Positions 3,030 through 55,163 of a stretch of DNA of 64,000 nt are shown in pieces. The notes beneath the pieces are model-generated. The model ran no database searches, was not told where the DNA came from, and saw only the letters and a program-made list of their open reading frames with translations. Origin of the DNA: Escherichia coli (GTDB lineage Bacteria > Pseudomonadota > Gammaproteobacteria > Enterobacterales > Enterobacteriaceae); NCBI RefSeq assembly GCF_965641715.1, contig NZ_OZ282453.1; one strand, written 5' to 3'. Numbering within the stretch: the first letter of the stretch is position 1; the number at the start of each line of letters is the position of its first letter. A program made the position numbers and the translations under genes.

Positions 3030-3055
3030 AACCGGGGCCGAAACCCCGGTTGTTA
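3030..3055. terminator. Hairpin between convergent ycaC and dmsC
   Basis: Perfect stem aaccgggg / ccccggtt with a 6-nt loop; no strong T-run, so it may act bidirectionally or only as a stabiliser. Confidence 0.45.
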
Positions 3056-4552: not shown

Positions 4553-6997
4553 TTACACCTTTTCAACCTGAACAAGGTTTGTATGTGACGGATTCCCCTT
4601 AGCGAGAGGAGACGGACGTTGAGTGGTCAGTACGTTAATACAACCACCCTTATCGACACGTTTTGCATCCGGGTCATACCAGGCACCTTCACCCAGTGCG
4701 ACCACACCCGGCATCATTCGTGGCGTCACTTTCGCCTCAATATGAACCTCACCACGATCGTTAAAGATCCTGACTTTATCGCCGTTGTGGATACCGCGTT
4801 TTTGGGCATCAAGCGGGTTGATCCACATTTCCTGACGGCAAGCCGCTTTCAGCACATCAACGTTGCCGTAAGTTGAGTGAACGCGAGATTTATAGTGGAA
4901 ACCTGTAAGCTGCAGCGGATACTGTTTGTTCAGCGGATCCTGATAACTTTCAAAGCCCGGCGTGTAGATCGGCAGTGGATCGATCACATCGCCTTCTGGC
5001 AATTCCCAGGTAGCGGCAATGTCAGCCAGCGCCTGCGAATAAATCTCAATTTTACCCGATGGCGTGGTCAGTGGATTTGCCTGCGGATCTTCACGGAAGG
5101 CTTTATAAGCAACGTGATGCCCTTGTGGGTCGCGCTTTTTAAAGATCCCCTGCTTGCGGAACTCTTCAAACGTTGGCAGTTCAGGAATCGCTTTCCGCGA
5201 CTGGGCATACAGATGCCGCATCCACTCTTCCTGGGTACGACCTTCAGTAAACTGTTGCTCAACGCCAAGACGTTTTGCCAGTTCGCTGGTCATCTCATAG
5301 ATGGTCTTACATTCAAAGCGCGGTTTAATCACCTGATCGTTGAAAATCACGTAAGACATATTCCCGCAGGATGCATCCAGCGCAAAGTCCATCTGTTCGG
5401 AAGCGGTGCAGTCAGGCAGCAGGATGTCAGCATATTTCGCCGATGAAGTCATGTGGCAGTCGATAACCACAATCAGCTCGCACTTCTTATCATCCTGGAG
5501 GATTTCATGGGTACGGTTGATTTCAGAATGCTGGTTAATCAGGCAGTTACCGGCATAGTTCCAGATCATTTTGATCGGCACATCCAGCTTATCTTTCCCG
5601 CGCACACCATCACGCAGCGCCGTCATTTCCGGGCCACGTTCAATGGCATCGGTCCACATAAACATCGAAATGCTGGTCTGGATCGGGTTTTCCAAGGTCG
5701 GCATACGGACAAACGGTAAGCTGTATGAACCTTCACGCGCGCCGCTGTTCCCTCCATTAATACCAACGTTACCGGTCAGAATCGCCAGCATCGAGATAGC
5801 ACGGGTTGCGATTTCACCGTTAGCGTGACGCTGCGGGCCCCATCCCTGGCTGATAAACGCCGGTTTGGTACTGCCGATTTCACGAGCCAGTTTGATGATT
5901 TTGTCTGCCGGAACACCGGTGATTTGCGAGGCCCATTCCGGTGTTTTAGCCACGCCATCTGGCCCTTCACCCAGAATATAAGCTTTATAGTGGCCATTTT
6001 TCGGCGCACTGGCTGGCAGGGTTTTCTCATCGTAGCCAACGCAATATTTATCGAGGAATGCCTGATCCACCAGGTTTTCAGTGATCATGACGTACGCCAG
6101 ACCGTTAACCAGTGCGGCATCTGTTCCCGGACGAATAGGGATCCACTCATCTTCGCGCCCGGCACCGGTGTCGGTATAGCGCGGATCGATGATGATCATG
6201 CGGGCATTAGATTTCTGGCGTGCCTGTTCAAGATAGTAAGTCACCCCACCGCCACTCATTCGCGTTTCGCCAGGGTTATTACCAAACAGCACTACCAGCT
6301 TACTGTTTTCGATATCCGACGGGCTGTTGCCATCTGCCCAGCCGCCGTAGGTATAGTTCAGACCTTCCGCAATTTGCGCGGAAGAGTAGTCACCGTAATG
6401 GTTCAGATAACCGCCGCAGCAGTTCATCAGCCGCGCGACCAGGGTATTTCCCGGCGGCCAGGAGCGGGTCATGGTGCCACCCAGCGTACCGGTGCCATAG
6501 TTAAGATAGATGGATTCGTTGCCGTACTCTTTGATCAGGCGCTGCATATTGGTCGCGATGATGTCGTAGGCTTCTTCCCAGCTAATGCGCTCGAATTTGC
6601 CTTCACCGCGCGCCCCGACTCGTTTCATCGGATATTTCAGGCGGTCCGGATTATAGACACGGCGACGCATGGAACGCCCACGCAAACAGGCGCGAACCTG
6701 GTGCAGGCCGTCGTAATTGTCATCGCCGGTATTGTCCGTTTCGACATATTTGATTTCACCGTCCACGACGTGCATACGTAGCGGGCAGCGACTACCACAG
6801 TTAACTGTACAGGCGCTCCAGATAACCTTTTCGTCTGATTTTGTTGGAATGGCGCTATCGACAGCGTGCGCAATCCGACTAAAAGGTAATGTTAATGCGC
6901 TGCTGGCCATTGCCAGGCCGCCGATCGCTGTCGTTTTTACTAAACCACGGCGACTCACCTCAGCAGCCAATACCGCATCAGGGATTTTCGTTTTCAT
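4553..6997 (-). CDS. dmsA: DMSO reductase catalytic subunit DmsA (molybdopterin, Tat-exported)
   Basis: 814 aa; N-terminal twin-arginine motif SRRGLVK; molybdopterin oxidoreductase family. Confidence 0.95.
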   Translation of the reverse strand: MKTKIPDAVLAAEVSRRGLVKTTAIGGLAMASSALTLPFSRIAHAVDSAIPTKSDEKVIWSACTVNCGSRCPLRMHVVDGEIKYVETDNTGDDNYDGLHQVRACLRGRSMRRRVYNPDRLKYPMKRVGARGEGKFERISWEEAYDIIATNMQRLIKEYGNESIYLNYGTGTLGGTMTRSWPPGNTLVARLMNCCGGYLNHYGDYSSAQIAEGLNYTYGGWADGNSPSDIENSKLVVLFGNNPGETRMSGGGVTYYLEQARQKSNARMIIIDPRYTDTGAGREDEWIPIRPGTDAALVNGLAYVMITENLVDQAFLDKYCVGYDEKTLPASAPKNGHYKAYILGEGPDGVAKTPEWASQITGVPADKIIKLAREIGSTKPAFISQGWGPQRHANGEIATRAISMLAILTGNVGINGGNSGAREGSYSLPFVRMPTLENPIQTSISMFMWTDAIERGPEMTALRDGVRGKDKLDVPIKMIWNYAGNCLINQHSEINRTHEILQDDKKCELIVVIDCHMTSSAKYADILLPDCTASEQMDFALDASCGNMSYVIFNDQVIKPRFECKTIYEMTSELAKRLGVEQQFTEGRTQEEWMRHLYAQSRKAIPELPTFEEFRKQGIFKKRDPQGHHVAYKAFREDPQANPLTTPSGKIEIYSQALADIAATWELPEGDVIDPLPIYTPGFESYQDPLNKQYPLQLTGFHYKSRVHSTYGNVDVLKAACRQEMWINPLDAQKRGIHNGDKVRIFNDRGEVHIEAKVTPRMMPGVVALGEGAWYDPDAKRVDKGGCINVLTTQRPSPLAKGNPSHTNLVQVEKV

Positions 6998-21980: not shown

Positions 21981-22068
21981 GGTGAGGTGTCCGAGTGGCT
22001 GAAGGAGCACGCCTGGAAAGTGTGTATACGGCAACGTATCGGGGGTTCGAATCCCCCCCTCACCGCCA
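21981..22068 (+). tRNA. serW: tRNA-Ser (anticodon GGA), class II tRNA with long variable arm
   Basis: ggtgaggtgtccgagtggctgaagg...ggttcgaatccccccctcaccgcca; T-loop GGTTCGAATCC; CCA end; anticodon loop ctGGAaa. Confidence 0.9.
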
Positions 22069-45960: not shown

Positions 45961-46476
45961 ATGCGCTACCGTTCACTATCTCTACTTATTCCATGTGCAC
46001 TGCTGCTGAGTGCCTGTACCACCGTCACGCCAGCTTATAAAGATAACGGTCCCCGCACCGGTTCCTGTGTCCAGGGGGGGCCTGACAGCGTGGCCCAACA
46101 ATTCTATGACTACCGCATTCAACATCGCAGCAATGACATTACCGCCCTGCGCCCCTATTTGAGTGACAAACTGGCAACCCTACTTAGCGATGCCAGCCGC
46201 GATAATAGTCATCGTGAATTGTTAAGCAGTGATCCGTTCTCCAGTCGAACCACCTTGCCAGACAGCGCCCACGTTGCCAGTGCATCGACTATCCCTAATC
46301 GTGATGCCCGTAACATTCCTTTGCGCGTGGATCTTAAACAGGGTGACCAGGGCTGGCAGGATGAAGTGTTAATGATTCAGGAAGGCCAGTGTTGGGTCAT
46401 CGACGATGTGCGTTACTTAGGCGGTAGCGTTCATGCCACGGCGGGTACGCTCCGTCAGTCCATCGAGAATCGCTAA
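45961..46476 (+). CDS. ybjP: Lipoprotein YbjP
   Basis: 171 aa from MRYRSLSLLIPCALLLSAC (lipobox); SD taaggaa 6 nt upstream of this ATG. Confidence 0.9.
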   Translation: MRYRSLSLLIPCALLLSACTTVTPAYKDNGPRTGSCVQGGPDSVAQQFYDYRIQHRSNDITALRPYLSDKLATLLSDASRDNSHRELLSSDPFSSRTTLPDSAHVASASTIPNRDARNIPLRVDLKQGDQGWQDEVLMIQEGQCWVIDDVRYLGGSVHATAGTLRQSIENR

Positions 46477-46693
46477 CGCCTTGATCAACCAATAAACCCC
46501 GTAAATTGTCCGGCATTTCGTGAGGAATGCCGACATTTATGCTCGCCGACCACCGCCCCCGTTATTTTGTGCTATGTTTATTGAATAATGCGCTTTGCTT
46601 TTAACTTTTAAAGCAGAAATATTGCATAATTATTCTGTCAAAGGTACTATCTTCGACCTCAATAGCTATCAGACTGCCAGTATACGAGTGTCA

Positions 46694-47422
46694 ATGAGTA
46701 TTCAATTAAACGGCATTAATTGCTTCTACGGCGCGCATCAGGCGCTGTTCGATATCACGCTGGATTGCCCACAGGGCGAAACGCTGGTGTTACTTGGCCC
46801 CAGCGGAGCGGGTAAAAGCTCGCTGCTGCGTGTACTCAATCTGCTTGAGATGCCGCGCTCCGGTACGCTCAACATTGCAGGCAACCATTTCGATTTCACC
46901 AAAACACCCTCAGACAAAGCGATTCGCGATTTGCGTCGTAACGTTGGCATGGTGTTTCAGCAATACAACCTGTGGCCGCATCTGACCGTGCAGCAAAACC
47001 TGATTGAAGCGCCCTGCCGTGTACTGGGGTTGAGTAAAGATCAGGCGCTGGCCCGTGCAGAAAAACTGCTGGAACGTCTGCGTCTCAAACCTTATAGCGA
47101 TCGTTACCCGCTGCATCTTTCTGGTGGTCAGCAGCAGCGTGTTGCTATTGCCCGTGCGTTAATGATGGAACCGCAGGTACTGCTGTTTGATGAACCGACC
47201 GCCGCACTGGACCCGGAAATTACGGCACAAATCGTCAGCATCATTCGTGAGCTGGCAGAAACGAATATTACCCAGGTGATCGTCACCCACGAAGTTGAAG
47301 TGGCGCGTAAAACCGCCAGCCGAGTGGTGTATATGGAAAATGGTCATATCGTAGAACAAGGCGACGCGAGCTGCTTTACCGAGCCGCAAACCGAAGCATT
47401 TAAAAACTATCTCTCTCACTAA
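46694..47422 (+). CDS. artP: Arginine ABC transporter ATP-binding protein ArtP
   Basis: 242 aa from [23 protein letters not shown]; Walker [10 protein letters not shown]. Confidence 0.95.
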
Positions 47423-47439
47423 GATTCGGGATAACAACA

Positions 47440-48171
47440 ATGAAAAAAGTTCTGATTGCCGCGTTAATTGCAGGTTTTAGTCTTTCCGCCACAGCTGCCG
47501 AAACCATTCGTTTTGCTACCGAAGCCTCCTATCCTCCGTTTGAATCGATTGATGCAAACAACCAGATCGTTGGTTTTGACATCGACCTGGCACAGGCACT
47601 GTGTAAAGAGATTGATGCGACCTGTACTTTCTCTAACCAGGCATTTGACAGCCTGATCCCAAGCCTGAAATTCCGTCGCGTGGAAGCGGTGATGGCGGGC
47701 ATGGATATCACTCCGGAGCGTGAAAAGCAGGTGCTGTTTACCACCCCGTACTATGACAACTCTGCCCTGTTTGTGGGTCAGCAAGGCAAATACACCAGTG
47801 TTGATCAGCTGAAAGGCAAAAAAGTCGGCGTTCAGAACGGGACGACACACCAGAAGTTCATTATGGATAAGCATCCGGAAATCACTACCGTGCCGTATGA
47901 CAGCTACCAGAACGCAAAACTGGATCTGCAAAACGGGCGTATCGACGGCGTCTTCGGTGACACCGCAGTGGTCACTGAGTGGCTGAAAGATAACCCGAAA
48001 CTGGCGGCGGTGGGCGACAAAGTGACCGATAAAGATTACTTCGGCACTGGCCTCGGCATCGCGGTACGTCAGGGCAACACTGAGCTGCAGCAGAAACTCA
48101 ACACTGCGCTGGAAAAAGTGAAGAAAGATGGCACTTACGAAACCATCTACAACAAATGGTTCCAGAAGTAA
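47440..48171 (+). CDS. artI: Arginine-binding periplasmic protein ArtI
   Basis: 243 aa with signal peptide; paralogous to artJ in this window. Confidence 0.93.
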   Translation: MKKVLIAALIAGFSLSATAAETIRFATEASYPPFESIDANNQIVGFDIDLAQALCKEIDATCTFSNQAFDSLIPSLKFRRVEAVMAGMDITPEREKQVLFTTPYYDNSALFVGQQGKYTSVDQLKGKKVGVQNGTTHQKFIMDKHPEITTVPYDSYQNAKLDLQNGRIDGVFGDTAVVTEWLKDNPKLAAVGDKVTDKDYFGTGLGIAVRQGNTELQQKLNTALEKVKKDGTYETIYNKWFQK

Positions 48172-48177
48172 TTCCTG

Positions 48178-48894
48178 ATGAATGAATTTTTTCCTTTAGC
48201 AAGCGCCGCCGGGATGACCGTCGGCCTTGCCGTTTGTGCATTGATTGTCGGACTGGCGCTGGCGATGTTCTTTGCGGTGTGGGAGTCGGCAAAATGGCGT
48301 CCTGTCGCGTGGGCAGGTTCAGCGCTGGTAACCATTCTACGTGGCCTGCCAGAAATTCTGGTGGTGCTGTTTATCTATTTTGGCTCCTCGCAGCTGCTGC
48401 TGACGCTTTCGGATGGCTTCACTATCAATCTTGGGTTCGTGCAGATCCCAGTGCAGATGGACATTGAGAACTTCGACGTTAGCCCGTTCCTTTGTGGTGT
48501 CATCGCTCTGTCACTGCTGTATGCCGCCTATGCCTCGCAAACGCTGCGCGGCGCGTTGAAAGCGGTGCCGATGGGTCAGTGGGAATCCGGCCAGGCGCTG
48601 GGGCTGTCGAAATCGGCTATCTTTTTCCGTCTGGTGATGCCGCAGATGTGGCGTCATGCGCTGCCTGGCCTCGGTAACCAGTGGCTGGTGCTGCTGAAAG
48701 ATACCGCGCTGGTCAGTTTGATTAGTGTGAATGATTTAATGCTACAAACCAAAAGCATTGCTACTCGTACCCAGGAACCTTTTACCTGGTACATTGTGGC
48801 GGCGGCGATTTACCTGGTGATCACCCTGCTCAGTCAGTACATTCTCAAACGCATTGACCTGCGCGCGACACGTTTTGAGCGGAGGCCCAGCTAA
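48178..48894 (+). CDS. artQ: Arginine ABC transporter permease ArtQ
   Basis: 238-aa membrane protein; synteny. Confidence 0.93.
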
Positions 48895-49562
48895 TGTTTG
48901 AGTATTTACCCGAACTGATGAAAGGGCTGCACACCAGCCTGACGCTGACGGTTGCCTCGCTGATTGTGGCGCTGATTCTGGCGTTGATTTTTACCATCAT
49001 CCTGACGCTGAAAACGCCGGTGCTGGTGTGGCTGGTGCGTGGTTATATCACACTGTTTACCGGCACGCCTCTGCTGGTGCAGATCTTCCTGATTTACTAC
49101 GGGCCGGGCCAGTTCCCGACGTTGCAGGAATATCCGGCACTGTGGCATTTGTTGTCAGAACCGTGGTTATGTGCATTGATTGCGTTATCGCTGAACAGTG
49201 CGGCGTATACCACGCAGCTGTTTTACGGTGCCATTCGCGCGATCCCGGAAGGTCAATGGCAATCCTGTAGCGCTCTGGGAATGAGTAAAAAAGATACGCT
49301 GGCGATCCTGCTGCCGTATGCCTTTAAACGCTCGCTCTCTTCTTATTCCAACGAAGTGGTGCTGGTGTTCAAAAGTACCTCTCTGGCTTACACCATTACG
49401 CTGATGGAAGTGATGGGATACAGCCAGTTGTTGTACGGACGCACCTACGATGTCATGGTGTTCGGTGCGGCAGGGATTATTTACCTGATTGTTAACGGTC
49501 TGCTGACGCTGATGATGCGTCTGATCGAGCGCAAAGCACTGGCATTCGAACGGCGGAATTAA
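48894..49562 (+). CDS. artM: Arginine ABC transporter permease ArtM
   Basis: 222-aa membrane protein; start overlaps the artQ stop. Confidence 0.93.
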   Translation: MFEYLPELMKGLHTSLTLTVASLIVALILALIFTIILTLKTPVLVWLVRGYITLFTGTPLLVQIFLIYYGPGQFPTLQEYPALWHLLSEPWLCALIALSLNSAAYTTQLFYGAIRAIPEGQWQSCSALGMSKKDTLAILLPYAFKRSLSSYSNEVVLVFKSTSLAYTITLMEVMGYSQLLYGRTYDVMVFGAAGIIYLIVNGLLTLMMRLIERKALAFERRN

Positions 49563-49592
49563 TGTAGCTGCGTACATTCGCCGGGGGGGTTT

Positions 49593-49679
49593 GTAGGTCT
49601 GATAAGACGCGCCAGCGTCGCATCAGACATCAGCACAGTGCCTGTACCGGATGCGGCGTGGACGCCTTATCCGGCCTAC
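49593..49679. repeat. BIME containing two REP elements
   Basis: gtaggtctgataagacgcgccagcgtcgcatcagac and taccggatgcggcgtggacgccttatccggcctac (REP consensus) in inverted orientation. Confidence 0.8.
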
Positions 49680-49704
49680 ATAGTGCATAAATTCTTATAA
49701 TAAA

Positions 49705-49737
49705 GACGGACAACTCACTAAGTTGTCCGTCTTTTTT
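49705..49737 (+). terminator. Rho-independent terminator of the artPIQM operon
   Basis: gacggacaact-cacta-agttgtccgtc followed by tttttt. Confidence 0.7.
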
Positions 49738-49853
49738 CATTTCATGCAAATTATTTAATCATATTTATTGCATATAAATTCACTTGATGGCATTGTTATC
49801 CCATGCCGCAGACACGGCCAATAATCATAAGATTGACAGACGGGAGTTCCATC

Positions 49854-50585
49854 ATGAAAAAGTTAGTTCTTGCCGCATTACTGGCATCCTGTGCGTTCGG
49901 CGCTTCTGCCGCAGAGAAAATCAATTTTGGCGTATCAGCGACCTATCCGCCGTTCGAGTCAATGGATGCTAATAACCAGATCGTCGGCTTTGATATCGAC
50001 CTGGCAAAAGCGTTATGCAAACAGATGCAGGCAGAATGTACTTTTACCAATCACGCTTTCGACAGCCTGATCCCGTCACTGAAATTCAGGAAATATGACG
50101 CCGTTATCTCCGGTATGGATATCACGCCAGATCGTAGCAAGCAGGTATCGTTTACCACGCCCTATTACGAAAACTCAGCCGTCGTGATTGCCAAAAAAGA
50201 TACCTACAAAACGTTTGCCGACCTGAAAGGCAAACGCATTGGGATGGAAAACGGTACTACGCACCAGAAATATATTCAGGATCAGCACCCGGAAGTGAAA
50301 ACGGTCTCCTATGACAGTTATCAAAATGCCTTTATCGATCTGAAAAATGGCCGTATTGATGGCGTATTTGGTGACACTGCGGTGGTTAATGAATGGCTGA
50401 AAACCAATCCGCAACTGGGCGTTGCTACTGAAAAAGTGACCGATCCGCAATACTTCGGCACCGGCCTGGGTATCGCTGTACGTCCGGATAACAAAGCTCT
50501 GCTGGAAAAACTGAATAACGCGCTGGCAGCAATTAAAGCTGACGGTACATATCAGAAAATCAGCGATCAGTGGTTCCCGCAATAA
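49854..50585 (+). CDS. artJ: Arginine-binding periplasmic protein ArtJ
   Basis: 243 aa from MKKLVLAALLASCAFGASA; SD gggag upstream. Confidence 0.93.
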   Translation: MKKLVLAALLASCAFGASAAEKINFGVSATYPPFESMDANNQIVGFDIDLAKALCKQMQAECTFTNHAFDSLIPSLKFRKYDAVISGMDITPDRSKQVSFTTPYYENSAVVIAKKDTYKTFADLKGKRIGMENGTTHQKYIQDQHPEVKTVSYDSYQNAFIDLKNGRIDGVFGDTAVVNEWLKTNPQLGVATEKVTDPQYFGTGLGIAVRPDNKALLEKLNNALAAIKADGTYQKISDQWFPQ

Positions 50586-50595
50586 TTATTCATTT

Positions 50596-50622
50596 GCCGG
50601 AGTGGGCGAACACCCACTCCGG
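50596..50622. terminator. Hairpin between convergent artJ and the sulfatase gene
   Basis: gccggagtggg-cgaaca-cccactccggc, an 11-bp perfect stem. Confidence 0.6.
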
Positions 50623-51861
50623 CAAAATCACTTCTCTACGCTAATCCCAGGCGCTGAAACTGCTCTGGCGGCGCATCATTATCTTTCATCAACTGAATCA
50701 GCAACGCGATCATCCGGGACTCGATCACATCATCATGAATCGGATGTAGCTGCTGCGGATCGTTTTGCAGATCAAACAGCAAATGACCAAACTGATTCAA
50801 CCCCTTATATTTTTCCTGTGCCGGGATGCGTAATACCTGTAACCCTTTGGTAAAACGAAACGGTGGGGCCAGCGATAAAGCCCGCATCTCATCCACCGGA
50901 TAGCGGCTGTTCATTTTGCAGGACATCAACGTGTAGTTGGCAATATCATCCTCACGCCCCGGCAGCGCTGCACGCATATACACATAACGCCCATCAGTTA
51001 CGTTAGCATGACCACTGAAAACACCAAACATCGCCGAGCTGCGTACTGGTTCATCGTGACTGACCGTTTTCGCCAGCGGTTGCCCCTGCACATCGGGCGG
51101 CACTGGCTGTTGAAAAAAGTCATACAACGTTGGCGCCCAGTCGATCATTTGTACCAGTGCCTGTCGCCGCTCTCCTTTTACACCACTGCGCGGGTCCCAG
51201 ATAAACAACGGATTATTGGCAACTTCGTTGTAATAAGGCATCTGGTTTTTCGCCCACCAGCCATGCTCACCGAGTAAAAAGCCGTGGTCAGTGCCGACAA
51301 TCAGCATGGTATCTCGCCACAGATCGTGCTCATCCATCAGGTCGAGAATGCGCCCCAGGTTGCGATCGCACATCGACACCAGCGAACGATACCGGCAACG
51401 GATGTGCTCCACGGCCTCGTCGCTTTCCTGCACCCGGCCACGCGGCCAGTCATAATGCGGTCCATCCCAGTTATCTTCATACAAGGAAAGATACTCTTCC
51501 GTTGTGTGAAACGGCTCGTGCGGATCAAACGTTTCGATCTGCAATAACCAGTTATCTTCCGCGTGATTTTTGTGGATAAAGGCACAGCCTGCATCAAACA
51601 CTTTAGTTTGTGGAAAATCTGCTTCCTGCTGAATATATTCCCGGTTTGCCCAGTCATGGCGCCACAGACCAGAAACACCGCCACCGGTCTGCTTTTGCGG
51701 CACCCGTAGCACCTCGGGAATAGGCGGTTGCGCAACGCTTGCATGCCAGTGATCGCCTTCCTGTCCGCGCACAATCTCCCACGAACTGTAGCGATTATGA
51801 TAATTCCCGCCGCCATCTTCCCAGTAATGCAAATGATCGCTTATCAGGTGGGTATAGATCC

Positions 51862-53200
51862 CATAAGCGCTAACTTAAGGGTTGAACCATCTGAAGAATG
51901 CGACGCCTCGGTGCCTCGTTAAGACGATGCCTCGCGTTCTTCAATTGCGTTTTGTAGGCTGTCAGGGATACTGTCCCACGAATGGCCACCTGTAAGCTCC
52001 AGATGACCATTTTTGTTATTCTCCACAACGAGTTAGTTCTTCTTTTCGGATCCGGCACTTCTGGGGGGGAAATCCAGCGATGGCTGGATTATGTCGTCAA
52101 TTAAAAATGCGGCGAGTAGATTAGCAAATATCCACGCTTTCGCGAGTTCAGGTTCCTTTGCACGCAAAGCATCCAGGTGCAGCAAACTTTTGAGCCGCTT
52201 AAAAGCCAGTTCAATTTGCCATCGCAGACGGTAACAATCAGCCACTTGCTCTGCTGAATATTCATCTTCCGGTAATGATGTTAGCAATAGCACATGGCCC
52301 GCTGCTTCCAGCGTTTCCGCCTGAACTACTCGTCCTTTTCGACGATTCTCGCTGAGCAGTCGGGTTTTACTGATTAATGCTTTTTCGGGAGGAAGTGATA
52401 CGGCAATGAGACGTGCCGGAAAGGGAGCTCCGGCTTTTTTATTACCTGAATTGCCTATCATTACAGTGGTTTCACCGTTCTTACCGCAATCCAGCCCGCG
52501 CAGAAAACCCATCATGTCAAAGCGCATTCCTTCTGCAGTTAACCAGCGCAATCCTCGCCAGTGAACCCGGACGATATAATCAGCTTCTCCAAAAGCAAGT
52601 GAGCGGATACATTCGGGACGCGAACCGAATCCCCGGTCAGCAATGCGTATCTCGTCTGCCGTTTGCGCAAATCGGTCCAGCCGTTCAGCGTCTCTGCTGT
52701 CGGTTAGCTCAAAATCAGTGAACTGACAGGTATGAGGATCATATCCCATATGTAGTCGCCATTCAGCGCTGCCGCCCCCGGGCGCACTGATTGCTGTTCC
52801 ATCGACAAGACGCAATCTCTTTCCGCTTGTACAACCCGTAACTGCGGCGCGTACAGCAAGTGTTTGTGCGGCAAGTATGCCAAACCAGTCGGCGGCATTC
52901 CGCAGCCGCTTCAGGAGAGCCACGTCAGATAATGTTGCAACGTCATGGAGCTGAGCCCATGCAGTGACTTCACGTAATGACATCCCCCCGGGGCCGTAAG
53001 CCAGCCCCAGACGTAGCAGAGTTGCAGCATCACGAATTTCGCGGCGGCGGGTTAGAGCCCCGGCATTACGTGCCGAAGTATCCAGTTCTTCGGGCTTACC
53101 AATATGGGCCAGAATTGCTGACCAGTTATCGTGAGAGTAATTCATCGGCACGTTAAATCATATCAGGCGTAATACCACAACCCTTAAGTTAGCGCTTATG
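51862..53200 (-). mobile_element. IS186 (IS4 family), complete copy with 23-bp terminal inverted repeats and a 10-bp target-site duplication
   Basis: Terminal repeats cataagcgctaacttaagggttg / caacccttaagttagcgcttatg; flanking direct repeat gtatagatcc at 51852-51861 and 53201-53210; target context ggg...ccc. Confidence 0.9.
52033..53145 (-). CDS. insL: IS186 transposase (DDE, IS4 family)
   Basis: 370 aa from MNYSHDNWSAILAHIGKPEELDTSARNAGALTRRREIRDAATLLRLGLAYGPGG..., matching the IS186 transposase. Confidence 0.9.
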   Translation of the reverse strand: MNYSHDNWSAILAHIGKPEELDTSARNAGALTRRREIRDAATLLRLGLAYGPGGMSLREVTAWAQLHDVATLSDVALLKRLRNAADWFGILAAQTLAVRAAVTGCTSGKRLRLVDGTAISAPGGGSAEWRLHMGYDPHTCQFTDFELTDSRDAERLDRFAQTADEIRIADRGFGSRPECIRSLAFGEADYIVRVHWRGLRWLTAEGMRFDMMGFLRGLDCGKNGETTVMIGNSGNKKAGAPFPARLIAVSLPPEKALISKTRLLSENRRKGRVVQAETLEAAGHVLLLTSLPEDEYSAEQVADCYRLRWQIELAFKRLKSLLHLDALRAKEPELAKAWIFANLLAAFLIDDIIQPSLDFPPRSAGSEKKN

Positions 53201-53477
53201 GTATAGATCCCCGCCTTTTTAAGCAGCTCCGGCATGGAATCGTCAAACGGTTCTAACGGCCCCCACTCCCGATGCAGGAAGTTACATCGCCCGGTATGCA
53301 ACTCCCGCCGAGCAGGCATACACGGCATACTGCCGACGTAACTGTTTTCAAAGGTGGCGGCATGAGCCGCCAGACGTTGGAAATTAGGCGCTTTGGTTAA
53401 CGCATCGCCATAAGGTGGCAGATAACGTTTATTCAGACTATCGAACAGTAGAATAATCGCTCTCATTACGCCCTACC

Positions 53478-53798
53478 TTATTGATTAATTAAATGCGGAA
53501 AATGTTGCTGAACCACTTCATAAATTTGCTGACCAATAGTTTCACCGTCCATAATATTCTCTATCGGAATCAAATATTGCCCTTGTTTCGGGTCAAGACT
53601 AACCACATCGAGTAATTTTTTGGAAATAGCAAAAATATCCGCCCAGTCGGTAAATCCGCCGACTTCACCTGCGGCGGTATGTTCCATTTCAACTTTGAAA
53701 TCATATTTGGTCAGCGCTTTTTTAACGACCGTTTGTAACATAACGCTACTGCCTACACCGTAACCACAGACAAACAGAATATTAATTGTATCTTTCAT
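53478..53798 (-). CDS. PTS EIIB component (ascorbate/galactitol-type PTS_IIB fold)
   Basis: 106 aa; N-terminal phospho-cysteine loop ILFVCGYGVGSS. Confidence 0.8.
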   Translation of the reverse strand: MKDTINILFVCGYGVGSSVMLQTVVKKALTKYDFKVEMEHTAAGEVGGFTDWADIFAISKKLLDVVSLDPKQGQYLIPIENIMDGETIGQQIYEVVQQHFPHLINQ

Positions 53799-53819: not shown

Positions 53820-55163
53820 TTAACCCGCGTAAGGACCAAGATGGAATGTTGCAGCGATAAATTTCAGAACTTCACAAATAGCAGGCCATACGGTTGCCCA
53901 GTCAAATATTCCTGTCCAGCCGACGCCATTTTCAGCAAGCCCGGTTAACGGAATAGCCCACACCGTACCGAAGGTCTGAATAATACCCAGCAAGAACGTA
54001 CAGATAATTACGGAACGGTATCCGCCCATGCGGTTTGCTAATACGCCAATTGGACCGCCAGAGAAAAACAGAGGTACAAAGCCAGGCAATACCATAATTG
54101 GGCTGTGAACCAGTAATAAGATCCCCATCGAAAAAATGGTGCCAAAAGTACAGAAGACGAAGCCTAACGTTGCGGCATTGGGTGAAAAAGGCAACAGCGC
54201 GGCGACATCGACGGCGGGAATGGCATTAGGAATAAAGCGATCCTGCCAGCCTTTAAACGAACCGTTAATTTCGCCCACCATCATGCGCACACCCTGCAGC
54301 AAAATGACCATATACATGGAGAACTGTAAGCCAAGGTTGATGATATAGATGTACCAGGGCTTGCCTTTCGCCATTAACTGGACATTATCGATACCCGTTG
54401 ATAGCAAGAAACCACCGACAAACAGCGTCATCACAATGGCGATAGCCGTTACGTTATGGTTAAAAATCGCCAGCCACCCGGGGAGTTTCAGGTTTTCAGC
54501 ATCGTGCTTTTCGGGGTCACCAAATTTATGGGCGAATTTGGAGAAAAACCACAATCCCAACATCTGGTTATGAGCAATGGTAAAACCGGCATCTTTGGTA
54601 ACTTTGGCAATGGGCTTAACAATGAGCGTGGTGGAGAACGCCCAGAATACACCCGTTAATATTCCGGCAATAATAATGGATGTAGTCCAGCTAAAACCCA
54701 GCCAAAAGACAATCAACCATAATACCGCCTGAGAATGTGAAACACCGGTATTCCCTGTCAAAAATATCCCTTTGGCACCAGTATACCGACCAAATAATAC
54801 CAGCAGCAGGTTGGTAAAAAACGCCAGTACAAATACATAACCGACATAACCAAAATTATCCCCCAACGCAATTTGCGTTGCCGCTTTCATTGCGTAGGAA
54901 TCCATTAAATATCCGTGAACACCATAGGCTTTACTTACGGCTTCTGCTACCGGTTTAAATGTTGCGGAAAACTGGAAACCACCAAATAACACCATCATTA
55001 ATCCCACCATGGCGCTGACCATGCCGGTAATAATTTTTATTGGCGATTTCTTATCAAGGGCATAACCAATACCCACCAGCAAACCAATTAAAATTGCCGG
55101 TTCAGTTAAAAACGTTTGAATAACATCTATGAATTTGGCAAACATCGTCGGAACGCCCTCCAT
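53820..55163 (-). CDS. PTS EIIC component, L-ascorbate (UlaA/SgaT) family
   Basis: About 445-aa polytopic membrane protein; segments such as LKLPGWLAIFNHNVTAIAIVMTLF resemble UlaA; start may be the second ATG (MFAKFIDV). Confidence 0.8.
   Translation of the reverse strand: MEGVPTMFAKFIDVIQTFLTEPAILIGLLVGIGYALDKKSPIKIITGMVSAMVGLMMVLFGGFQFSATFKPVAEAVSKAYGVHGYLMDSYAMKAATQIALGDNFGYVGYVFVLAFFTNLLLVLFGRYTGAKGIFLTGNTGVSHSQAVLWLIVFWLGFSWTTSIIIAGILTGVFWAFSTTLIVKPIAKVTKDAGFTIAHNQMLGLWFFSKFAHKFGDPEKHDAENLKLPGWLAIFNHNVTAIAIVMTLFVGGFLLSTGIDNVQLMAKGKPWYIYIINLGLQFSMYMVILLQGVRMMVGEINGSFKGWQDRFIPNAIPAVDVAALLPFSPNAATLGFVFCTFGTIFSMGILLLVHSPIMVLPGFVPLFFSGGPIGVLANRMGGYRSVIICTFLLGIIQTFGTVWAIPLTGLAENGVGWTGIFDWATVWPAICEVLKFIAATFHLGPYAG

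Follow-up and report, generated by a model that had tools for sequence, protein, structure and literature searches.

Two fragments of a sulfatase gene lie on either side of an insertion sequence in the stretch of Escherichia coli DNA analyzed here (64 kb, hereafter the window), which raises the question of whether they derive from one gene, how recently that gene was interrupted, and whether the interruption was an isolated event or one of several at the same position. Comparison of the locus with the IS186 copies of E. coli K-12 and with occupied and empty sites in other genomes indicates that the window very probably carries a recent insertion of a full-length IS186 that splits the sulfatase gene, and that this insertion is one of at least five independent events at a hot spot. 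The coordinates of the features are given in Table 1.

Table 1. Features of the interrupted sulfatase locus, with positions counted from the first nucleotide of the window.
Feature	Position	Strand	Basis
Sulfatase 3' fragment, codons 87-493 plus stop, including one duplication copy; carries the GTDHG motif	50636..51861	-	ORF, restored sequence
Left target-site duplication copy, 10 bp GTATAGATCC	51852..51861	.	Adjoins IS186 end
Complete IS186 copy, 1339 bp	51862..53200	-	Full-length identity to K-12 MG1655 IS186A, 23-bp repeats
23-bp terminal inverted repeat next to the transposase stop	51862..51884	+	Exact match to CATAAGCGCTAACTTAAGGGTTG
Intact insL gene for the 370-aa transposase, with stop codon	52033..53145	-	Open reading frame; Pfam, NCBIfam
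Chimeric 102-aa frame, 89 sulfatase codons plus 13 IS codons	53158..53466	-	ORF list
23-bp terminal inverted repeat next to the transposase start	53178..53200	-	Exact match to CATAAGCGCTAACTTAAGGGTTG
Sulfatase 5' fragment, codons 1-89, with Asp9 and C49-M-P-A-R53	53201..53466	-	ORF, translation; Pfam Sulfatase
Right target-site duplication copy, 10 bp GTATAGATCC	53201..53210	.	Adjoins IS186 end
Intact PTS IIB gene (106 aa), upstream of the sulfatase gene in its operon	53478..53798	-	Pfam PTS_IIB; length equal to the O157:H7 gene
Intact PTS IIC gene (447 aa), at the head of the operon	53820..55163	-	Pfam EIIC-GAT, 326 bits

Regarding the identity of the element, the initial annotation had recognized a complete IS186 with 23-bp terminal inverted repeats and a transposase, and the alignment with IS186A of E. 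coli K-12 MG1655 bears this out, as 1339 of 1339 nucleotides are identical (100%) and the element is thus neither truncated nor of another kind. The inverted repeats are perfect over 23 of 23 positions from the tips, and the repeat sequence occurs in exactly two places in the 64-kb window (0 expected by chance), which contains a single copy of IS186. The sole long reading frame of this copy is insL, which is nucleotide-identical to insL1 of K-12 and lies on the minus strand, in the direction of the interrupted sulfatase gene; the encoded transposase InsL matches the Pfam family DDE_Tnp_1 (PF01609) at 93.7 bits and the NCBIfam IS4 family transposase model (NF033592) at 133 bits, for a cut-off of 115. 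The length given for IS186 varies by convention, being 1339 bp between the tips of the inverted repeats here, 1345 bp for the annotated MG1655 feature and 1338 bp in an ISfinder-based table (PMC12102499). Identical copies are labeled either 'IS186B family' or 'IS421 family' in RefSeq, and these are names of one element group. Matches to IS186 were detected in 2220 of 5426 complete E. coli genomes, at a median of three places per genome and up to 22.

The two sulfatase fragments in the annotation of the window are one gene split by IS186. Deletion of positions 51862-53210, comprising the element and one copy of the repeat, gives a single minus-strand reading frame of exactly 493 aa, in line with the in-frame sulfatase of about 493 aa that had been predicted for the uninterrupted state. 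Compared with P0016, an intact E. coli protein that occurs naturally on at least 1000 contigs, the restored protein has no residue changed, and no further damage was found in it. It matches the Pfam Sulfatase family (PF00884) at 100.2 bits, for a cut-off of 25, and also has an SGSH_C domain; its translation contains a Cys-type formylglycine motif, C49-M-P-A-R53, of the form C-x-P-x-R. None of the NCBIfam equivalogs matched the restored sulfatase at its cut-off, and no signal peptide was seen by eye. The insertion point lies at codon 89/90, so that the GTDHG metal-site motif is placed on the 3' fragment, apart from Asp9, Cys49, and Arg53, and the separation of these three residues from the GTDHG region would be expected to abolish sulfatase activity.

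Regarding the target site, the perfect 10-bp duplication is present at both ends of the element, and the span of 51852-53210 proposed in the initial annotation proved exact. The first base of IS186 is C and its last base is G, and in the target a G precedes and a C follows the 10-mer; the repeat thus extends over 12 nt, GGTATAGATCCC, and since the end bases of the element match the flanks of the target, a length of 10, 11, or 12 bp may be assigned to the duplication. The three IS186 copies of K-12 have the identical end ambiguity and the identical 10-bp geometry, the duplication consisting for each copy of two G, a 6-bp core and two C (sites GGCGGGG-ATCACT-CCCCGCC, CCGGGG-ATAATT-CCCCGG, and GCGGGG-AGTAAT-CC..). 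In the sense of the sulfatase gene the target reads GGGG-ATCTAT-ACCC, in the wider context GGCGGGG-ATCTAT-ACCCACC; the 30-bp sequence of the insertion site is AAGGCGGGGATCTATACCCACCTGA. The published target of IS186 is 5'-GGGG(N6/N7)CCCC-3', used in either orientation (PMC5009759), with which the sulfatase site agrees at seven of eight flank bases, A replacing the first C (ACCC instead of CCCC). The G-rich and C-rich context that the element was said to prefer is therefore present, as a G-run and a C-run around an AT-rich core, but it is one base off the published motif. Departures of one or two bases from the consensus were reported for 7 of 59 IS186 sites (PMC5009759). Two perfect-consensus sites in the window, at positions 3034 and 22042 (the latter inside a tRNA-Ser gene), are without IS186, and a match to the motif is thus insufficient by itself to explain or to predict frequent use of a site.

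Empty sites were found in other genomes, close relatives of the window among them. The sulfatase gene is present and uninterrupted at this position in 566 of the 5426 complete E. coli genomes, all 566 being empty; no occupied site was found among these gene-bearing complete RefSeq genomes with a query for the left junction at a coverage of at least 80%, and an exact scan for the junction in one genome per GTDB species gave 0 matches. The empty target, GGTGGGTATAGATCCCCGCC, with a single 10-mer, is kept in three alleles of the sulfatase gene, with identities as low as 93%. Whether the repeat is single where the element is missing bears directly on its interpretation as a duplication, and one copy of the 10-mer is indeed present in O157:H7, WP8, ET201, and two close relatives of the window, L023 and L024.

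Among the 5426 complete genomes, the best match to the 13.9 kb left of IS186 reaches only 98.8%. Relatives of the window were instead identified by its exact RlmC protein, used as a lineage tag, and the empty site in related isolates that the initial annotation had suggested looking for is found among them. The site is empty in L024 (Logan SRR12026302) and L023 (GCA_910705265.1), which differ from the window by 0 and 1 mismatches, respectively, in 11.1 kb of flanks, and it is occupied in the orientation of the window in L025 (GCA_965259455.1), again with 0 mismatches in 11.1 kb; a further contig (L026) has 0 mismatches to the flanks of the window and stops 2 nt before IS186. Among the 23 contigs of this lineage that were read, 18 are empty, two are occupied and three end at the site, counts that give no unbiased frequency, as the longest contigs were read first and IS elements break short-read contigs. 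Empty and occupied states on near-identical flanks imply that the insertion is very recent and polymorphic within the clone of the window, and the identity of the restored 493-aa protein to P0016 leads to the same conclusion; the recent date proposed for the insertion is upheld on both grounds.

Regarding the locus, the order of genes from artJ to rlmC in the window is that annotated in O157:H7, namely artJ, sulfatase (493 aa), PTS IIB, PTS IIC, and rlmC. A three-gene accessory operon (PTS IIC-PTS IIB-sulfatase) ends with the sulfatase gene, which is convergent with artJ; it follows that the insertion is not polar on the PTS genes. The PTS IIC protein matches NCBIfam NF009550 at 964 bits and has the same length as in O157:H7. 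The operon island is accessory, being present in 566 of 5426 complete E. coli genomes and absent from about 90%. In strain ET201, the sulfatase gene has an internal stop and the IIC gene carries an IS1. The description of a recently inactivated accessory pathway fits the recent split of the sulfatase gene and the accessory nature of the island, but the IIC and IIB genes are intact and inactivation of the pathway as a whole is a presumption.

Insertion of IS186 in the orientation seen in the window creates a chimeric 102-aa product that is an exact signature of the junction, and this product was found on 31 contigs (55 index blocks); E. coli E101 is among its carriers, as is L003, a 977-kb scaffold with the complete structure. 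The product predicted for the opposite orientation, of 108 aa, was found on 30 contigs (39 blocks); among its carriers, L012 (UGDS01000001.1) and L013 (CP057841.1) are chromosome-length sequences with a full-length IS186 in reverse and the identical 10-bp duplication. L003 on the one hand and L012 and L013 on the other thus share one junction position and one duplication but have opposite ends of IS186 at it. Since inversion between IS copies leaves the pairing of ends and flanks unchanged, the two orientations represent separate insertions. The occupied state is a minority, and the counts across the collection do not amount to an unbiased frequency.

Haplogroups were defined from 5.7 kb of upstream flank, with 0-3 differences in 5700 positions within groups. 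Haplogroup A (at most three differences) includes forward (L003, L010), reverse (L016), and empty (L027-L030) states, and haplogroup B likewise includes forward (L009), reverse (L011, L012, L015, L035), and empty (L031, L038, L039) states, with one orientation in each of the two groups represented by short-read contigs only (L016 and three similar contigs in A, L009 and one similar contig in B). These minority-orientation contigs stop 126 bp inside the IS, beyond the shared 23-bp repeat. The flank group of the window has forward and empty states, and IS186 is also present at the site in six other haplotypes that all differ from one another (L013, L014, L004/L006, L005, L007, and L008). By parsimony, at least five and possibly about eleven independent insertions of IS186 would have taken place at this site, in two orientations, which points to the sulfatase site as a natural IS186 hot spot in E. 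coli.

The event in the window is not unique, as insertions recur in other lineages and in both orientations. A contig-end 'partial sulfatase' product of 88 aa occurs in 405 blocks of the collection; it fits many more draft assemblies broken at the site and is no proof of an IS. Two records were set aside. L004 (OU349842.1) appeared to contain a head-to-head IS186 fragment joined to hyf genes, but a 100-N scaffold gap inside the IS identifies this arrangement as a scaffolding join. L028 (CP114369.1), in which a sulfatase was not called, shows differences that look like base-calling errors and not like a real lesion.

The recurrence could alternatively reflect mainly selection for loss of the sulfatase with retention of the PTS genes, instead of a mutational hot spot. 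Other decay of the island, such as that in ET201, and the absence of the operon from about nine in ten complete genomes would fit such a history, which is nevertheless unlikely, as all IS186 events (in look-ups made by junction-specific products at this site) are at one nucleotide, whereas insertions selected for loss of function would be spread over the 1.5-kb gene and would involve other types of IS. Furthermore, the choice of GGGG(N6/N7)CCCC targets, with multiple independent insertions at some of them, was observed in unselected mutation-accumulation lines (PMC5009759). Recurrence is thus probably driven by target preference, and occupied alleles may still become more frequent through selection, which is compatible with a hot spot.

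Less probable again is a fast and possibly reversible IS186 switch, in which insertion in either orientation is combined with frequent precise excision through the 10-bp duplication, and the sulfatase would, if this were so, behave like a phase-variable gene. Two clonal flank backgrounds each include all three states (empty, forward, reverse), which fits repeated gain and gain-and-loss alike.

A single ancient insertion, inherited and spread between lineages by homologous recombination, is very improbable as the source of all occupied sites. The junction and the duplication are identical across occupied loci, and the IS copies at these loci are identical or 1 nt apart, as a common origin would have it, but identical junctions are equally expected from a sequence-specific target. 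Moreover, both orientations occur with intact duplications in the fully assembled L003 vs. L012 and L013, and an inversion between IS copies is unable to alter which end of the IS adjoins a particular flank; the empty state and both orientations occur together on flanks that are 0-3 positions in 5700 apart, and the lineage of the window has empty sites at 0-1 differences in 11.1 kb. An artefact of assembly, by which a multi-copy IS was wrongly placed in the window, can be dismissed with near certainty, since, even though IS186 has several places per genome (a median of three, up to 22), public records have been joined across it (as in the 100-N gap of L004) and two metagenome contigs (L005, L011) connect the junction to distant loci, a mis-join would not make two junctions with a perfect 10-bp duplication that is single-copy at empty sites, and the junction recurs in many independent assemblies, including the lineage-matched L025.

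Repeated insertion at a preferred target thus remains the favored explanation, and the following course of events may be proposed for the window. A transposition-competent IS186, of the IS4 family and with a cut-and-paste DDE transposase, would have entered, at codon 89/90, the gene that ends the operon between artJ and rlmC and encodes a probably cytoplasmic 493-aa Cys-type sulfatase. The transposase would cut with a stagger of 10 bp centered on the AT-rich 6-bp core between the G-run and the C-run, at the points marked by strokes in GG|GG ATCTAT AC|CC (gene sense), a geometry that we infer from the duplication, and repair of the gaps would produce the 10-bp duplication. The N-terminal catalytic residues would thereby be parted from the rest of the active site, leaving a dead sulfatase and untouched PTS genes.

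The sulfatase hot spot is a new case of a known phenomenon with an already known mechanism; it appears to be undescribed so far, as the literature search returned no paper naming IS186 together with a sulfatase. It adds an example from natural populations to the laboratory hot spots (lon promoter, fimA, menC) and indicates that a single-base departure from the consensus does not keep a site from receiving repeated IS186 insertions. In practice, breaks in draft contigs and calls of a 'partial sulfatase' at this position in E. coli are likely to represent IS186 insertions, and, because of the recurrence, the presence or orientation of IS186 at the site is unsuitable as a clonal marker. The understanding of how IS186 acts is unchanged, and the mutation is otherwise of an ordinary and well-understood kind.

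Regarding the sulfatase, the protein encoded in the window has the Pfam Sulfatase and SGSH_C domains and the C-x-P-x-R motif in common with the S1 formylglycine sulfatases. Its closest solved structures, 7p24, 5g2v, and 6fny, are distant and have modest scores, the nearest solved relatives by kind being mucin-desulfating enzymes or GlcNAc-6-sulfatases of Bacteroides and choline sulfatases. Unlike the named S1 examples, it matches no equivalog at its cut-off, and its gene follows a PTS IIC-IIB pair.

Regarding the element, the copy in the window shows no element-level differences from IS186A, IS186B, and IS186C of K-12 (IS4 family, also annotated as IS421 family), and the comparison therefore turns on the sites. 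The lon promoter is a hot spot for IS186 according to SaiSree et al. (2001, J Bacteriol 183:6943) as cited in PMC3045373, where opposite orientations at one position of that promoter are taken as evidence of independent events. Further hot spots in K-12 mutation-accumulation lines include fimA, menC, and other GGGG(N6/N7)CCCC sites (PMC5009759). The sulfatase site resembles the lon promoter, fimA, and menC in that IS186 has inserted there repeatedly and independently at one position, in either orientation, around an AT-rich 6-bp core between G- and C-runs. It differs from these known hot spots in being one base off the consensus, in lying in an accessory gene that is absent from K-12, and in being occupied in natural isolates instead of laboratory lines.

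Among 5426 complete Escherichia coli genomes, none matches the 13.9 kb to the left of the IS186 copy (window 38000-51861) at more than 98.8% identity, whereas the region of the window encoding the sulfatase is 99.6% identical to that of O157:H7. The lineage represented by the window is without a complete genome in RefSeq, and the local history of the window is a mosaic. The rlmC gene, which borders the accessory operon of PTS IIC, PTS IIB and sulfatase genes, differs from that of the other loci in which the sulfatase is occupied by IS186 at 21-28 of 1128 positions.

Regarding the junctions between the sulfatase gene and IS186 in other assemblies, many draft contigs (L017-L020 and L026) end at ...GGGGATCTAT, 2 nt before the IS boundary and not within the element. 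In two metagenome contigs from ENA the sequence continues past the IS into distant loci, with the 3' sulfatase fragment being replaced by entD-fepA-fes in one (L005, 7600-12309) and by the TonB-receptor/rlmF/ybiO region in the other (L011, 7600-12327); these joins reflect either IS186-mediated rearrangement or chimeric assembly across the repeated IS. A further link, between the sulfatase junction and the hyf genes in L004 (OU349842.1), was rejected as a real structure and is a scaffolding join, as a gap of 100 N (6747-6846) lies within the IS, with the hyf genes on its far side.

Decay of the operon by routes other than IS186 insertion was observed in ET201 (L022, NZ_CP100994.1, 426-3301), where the annotation lists the sulfatase gene as a pseudogene carrying an internal stop, and where the gene encoding PTS IIC is truncated beside an IS1.

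The window also contains two perfect matches to the IS186 consensus target, GGGG(N6/N7)CCCC, both outside the sulfatase gene.

Perfect IS186 consensus sites elsewhere in the window and their occupancy
Site	Window position	Location	IS186
GGGGTTCGAATCCCC	22042-22056	T-arm of tRNA-Ser(GGA), gene 21981-22068	Not present
GGGGCCGAAACCCC	3034-3047	Between two convergent reading frames	Not present

An IS186/IS421 copy is annotated beside a tRNA-Ser in one complete genome (H45, NZ_OY754357.1), and consensus sites of the tRNA-Ser type may therefore be used by IS186 in other genomes.

Beyond E. coli, sulfatases of 495 amino acids from Salmonella enterica fall into the same protein cluster at 90% identity as the E. 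coli sulfatase; the gene is thus common to E. coli and Salmonella at high identity.
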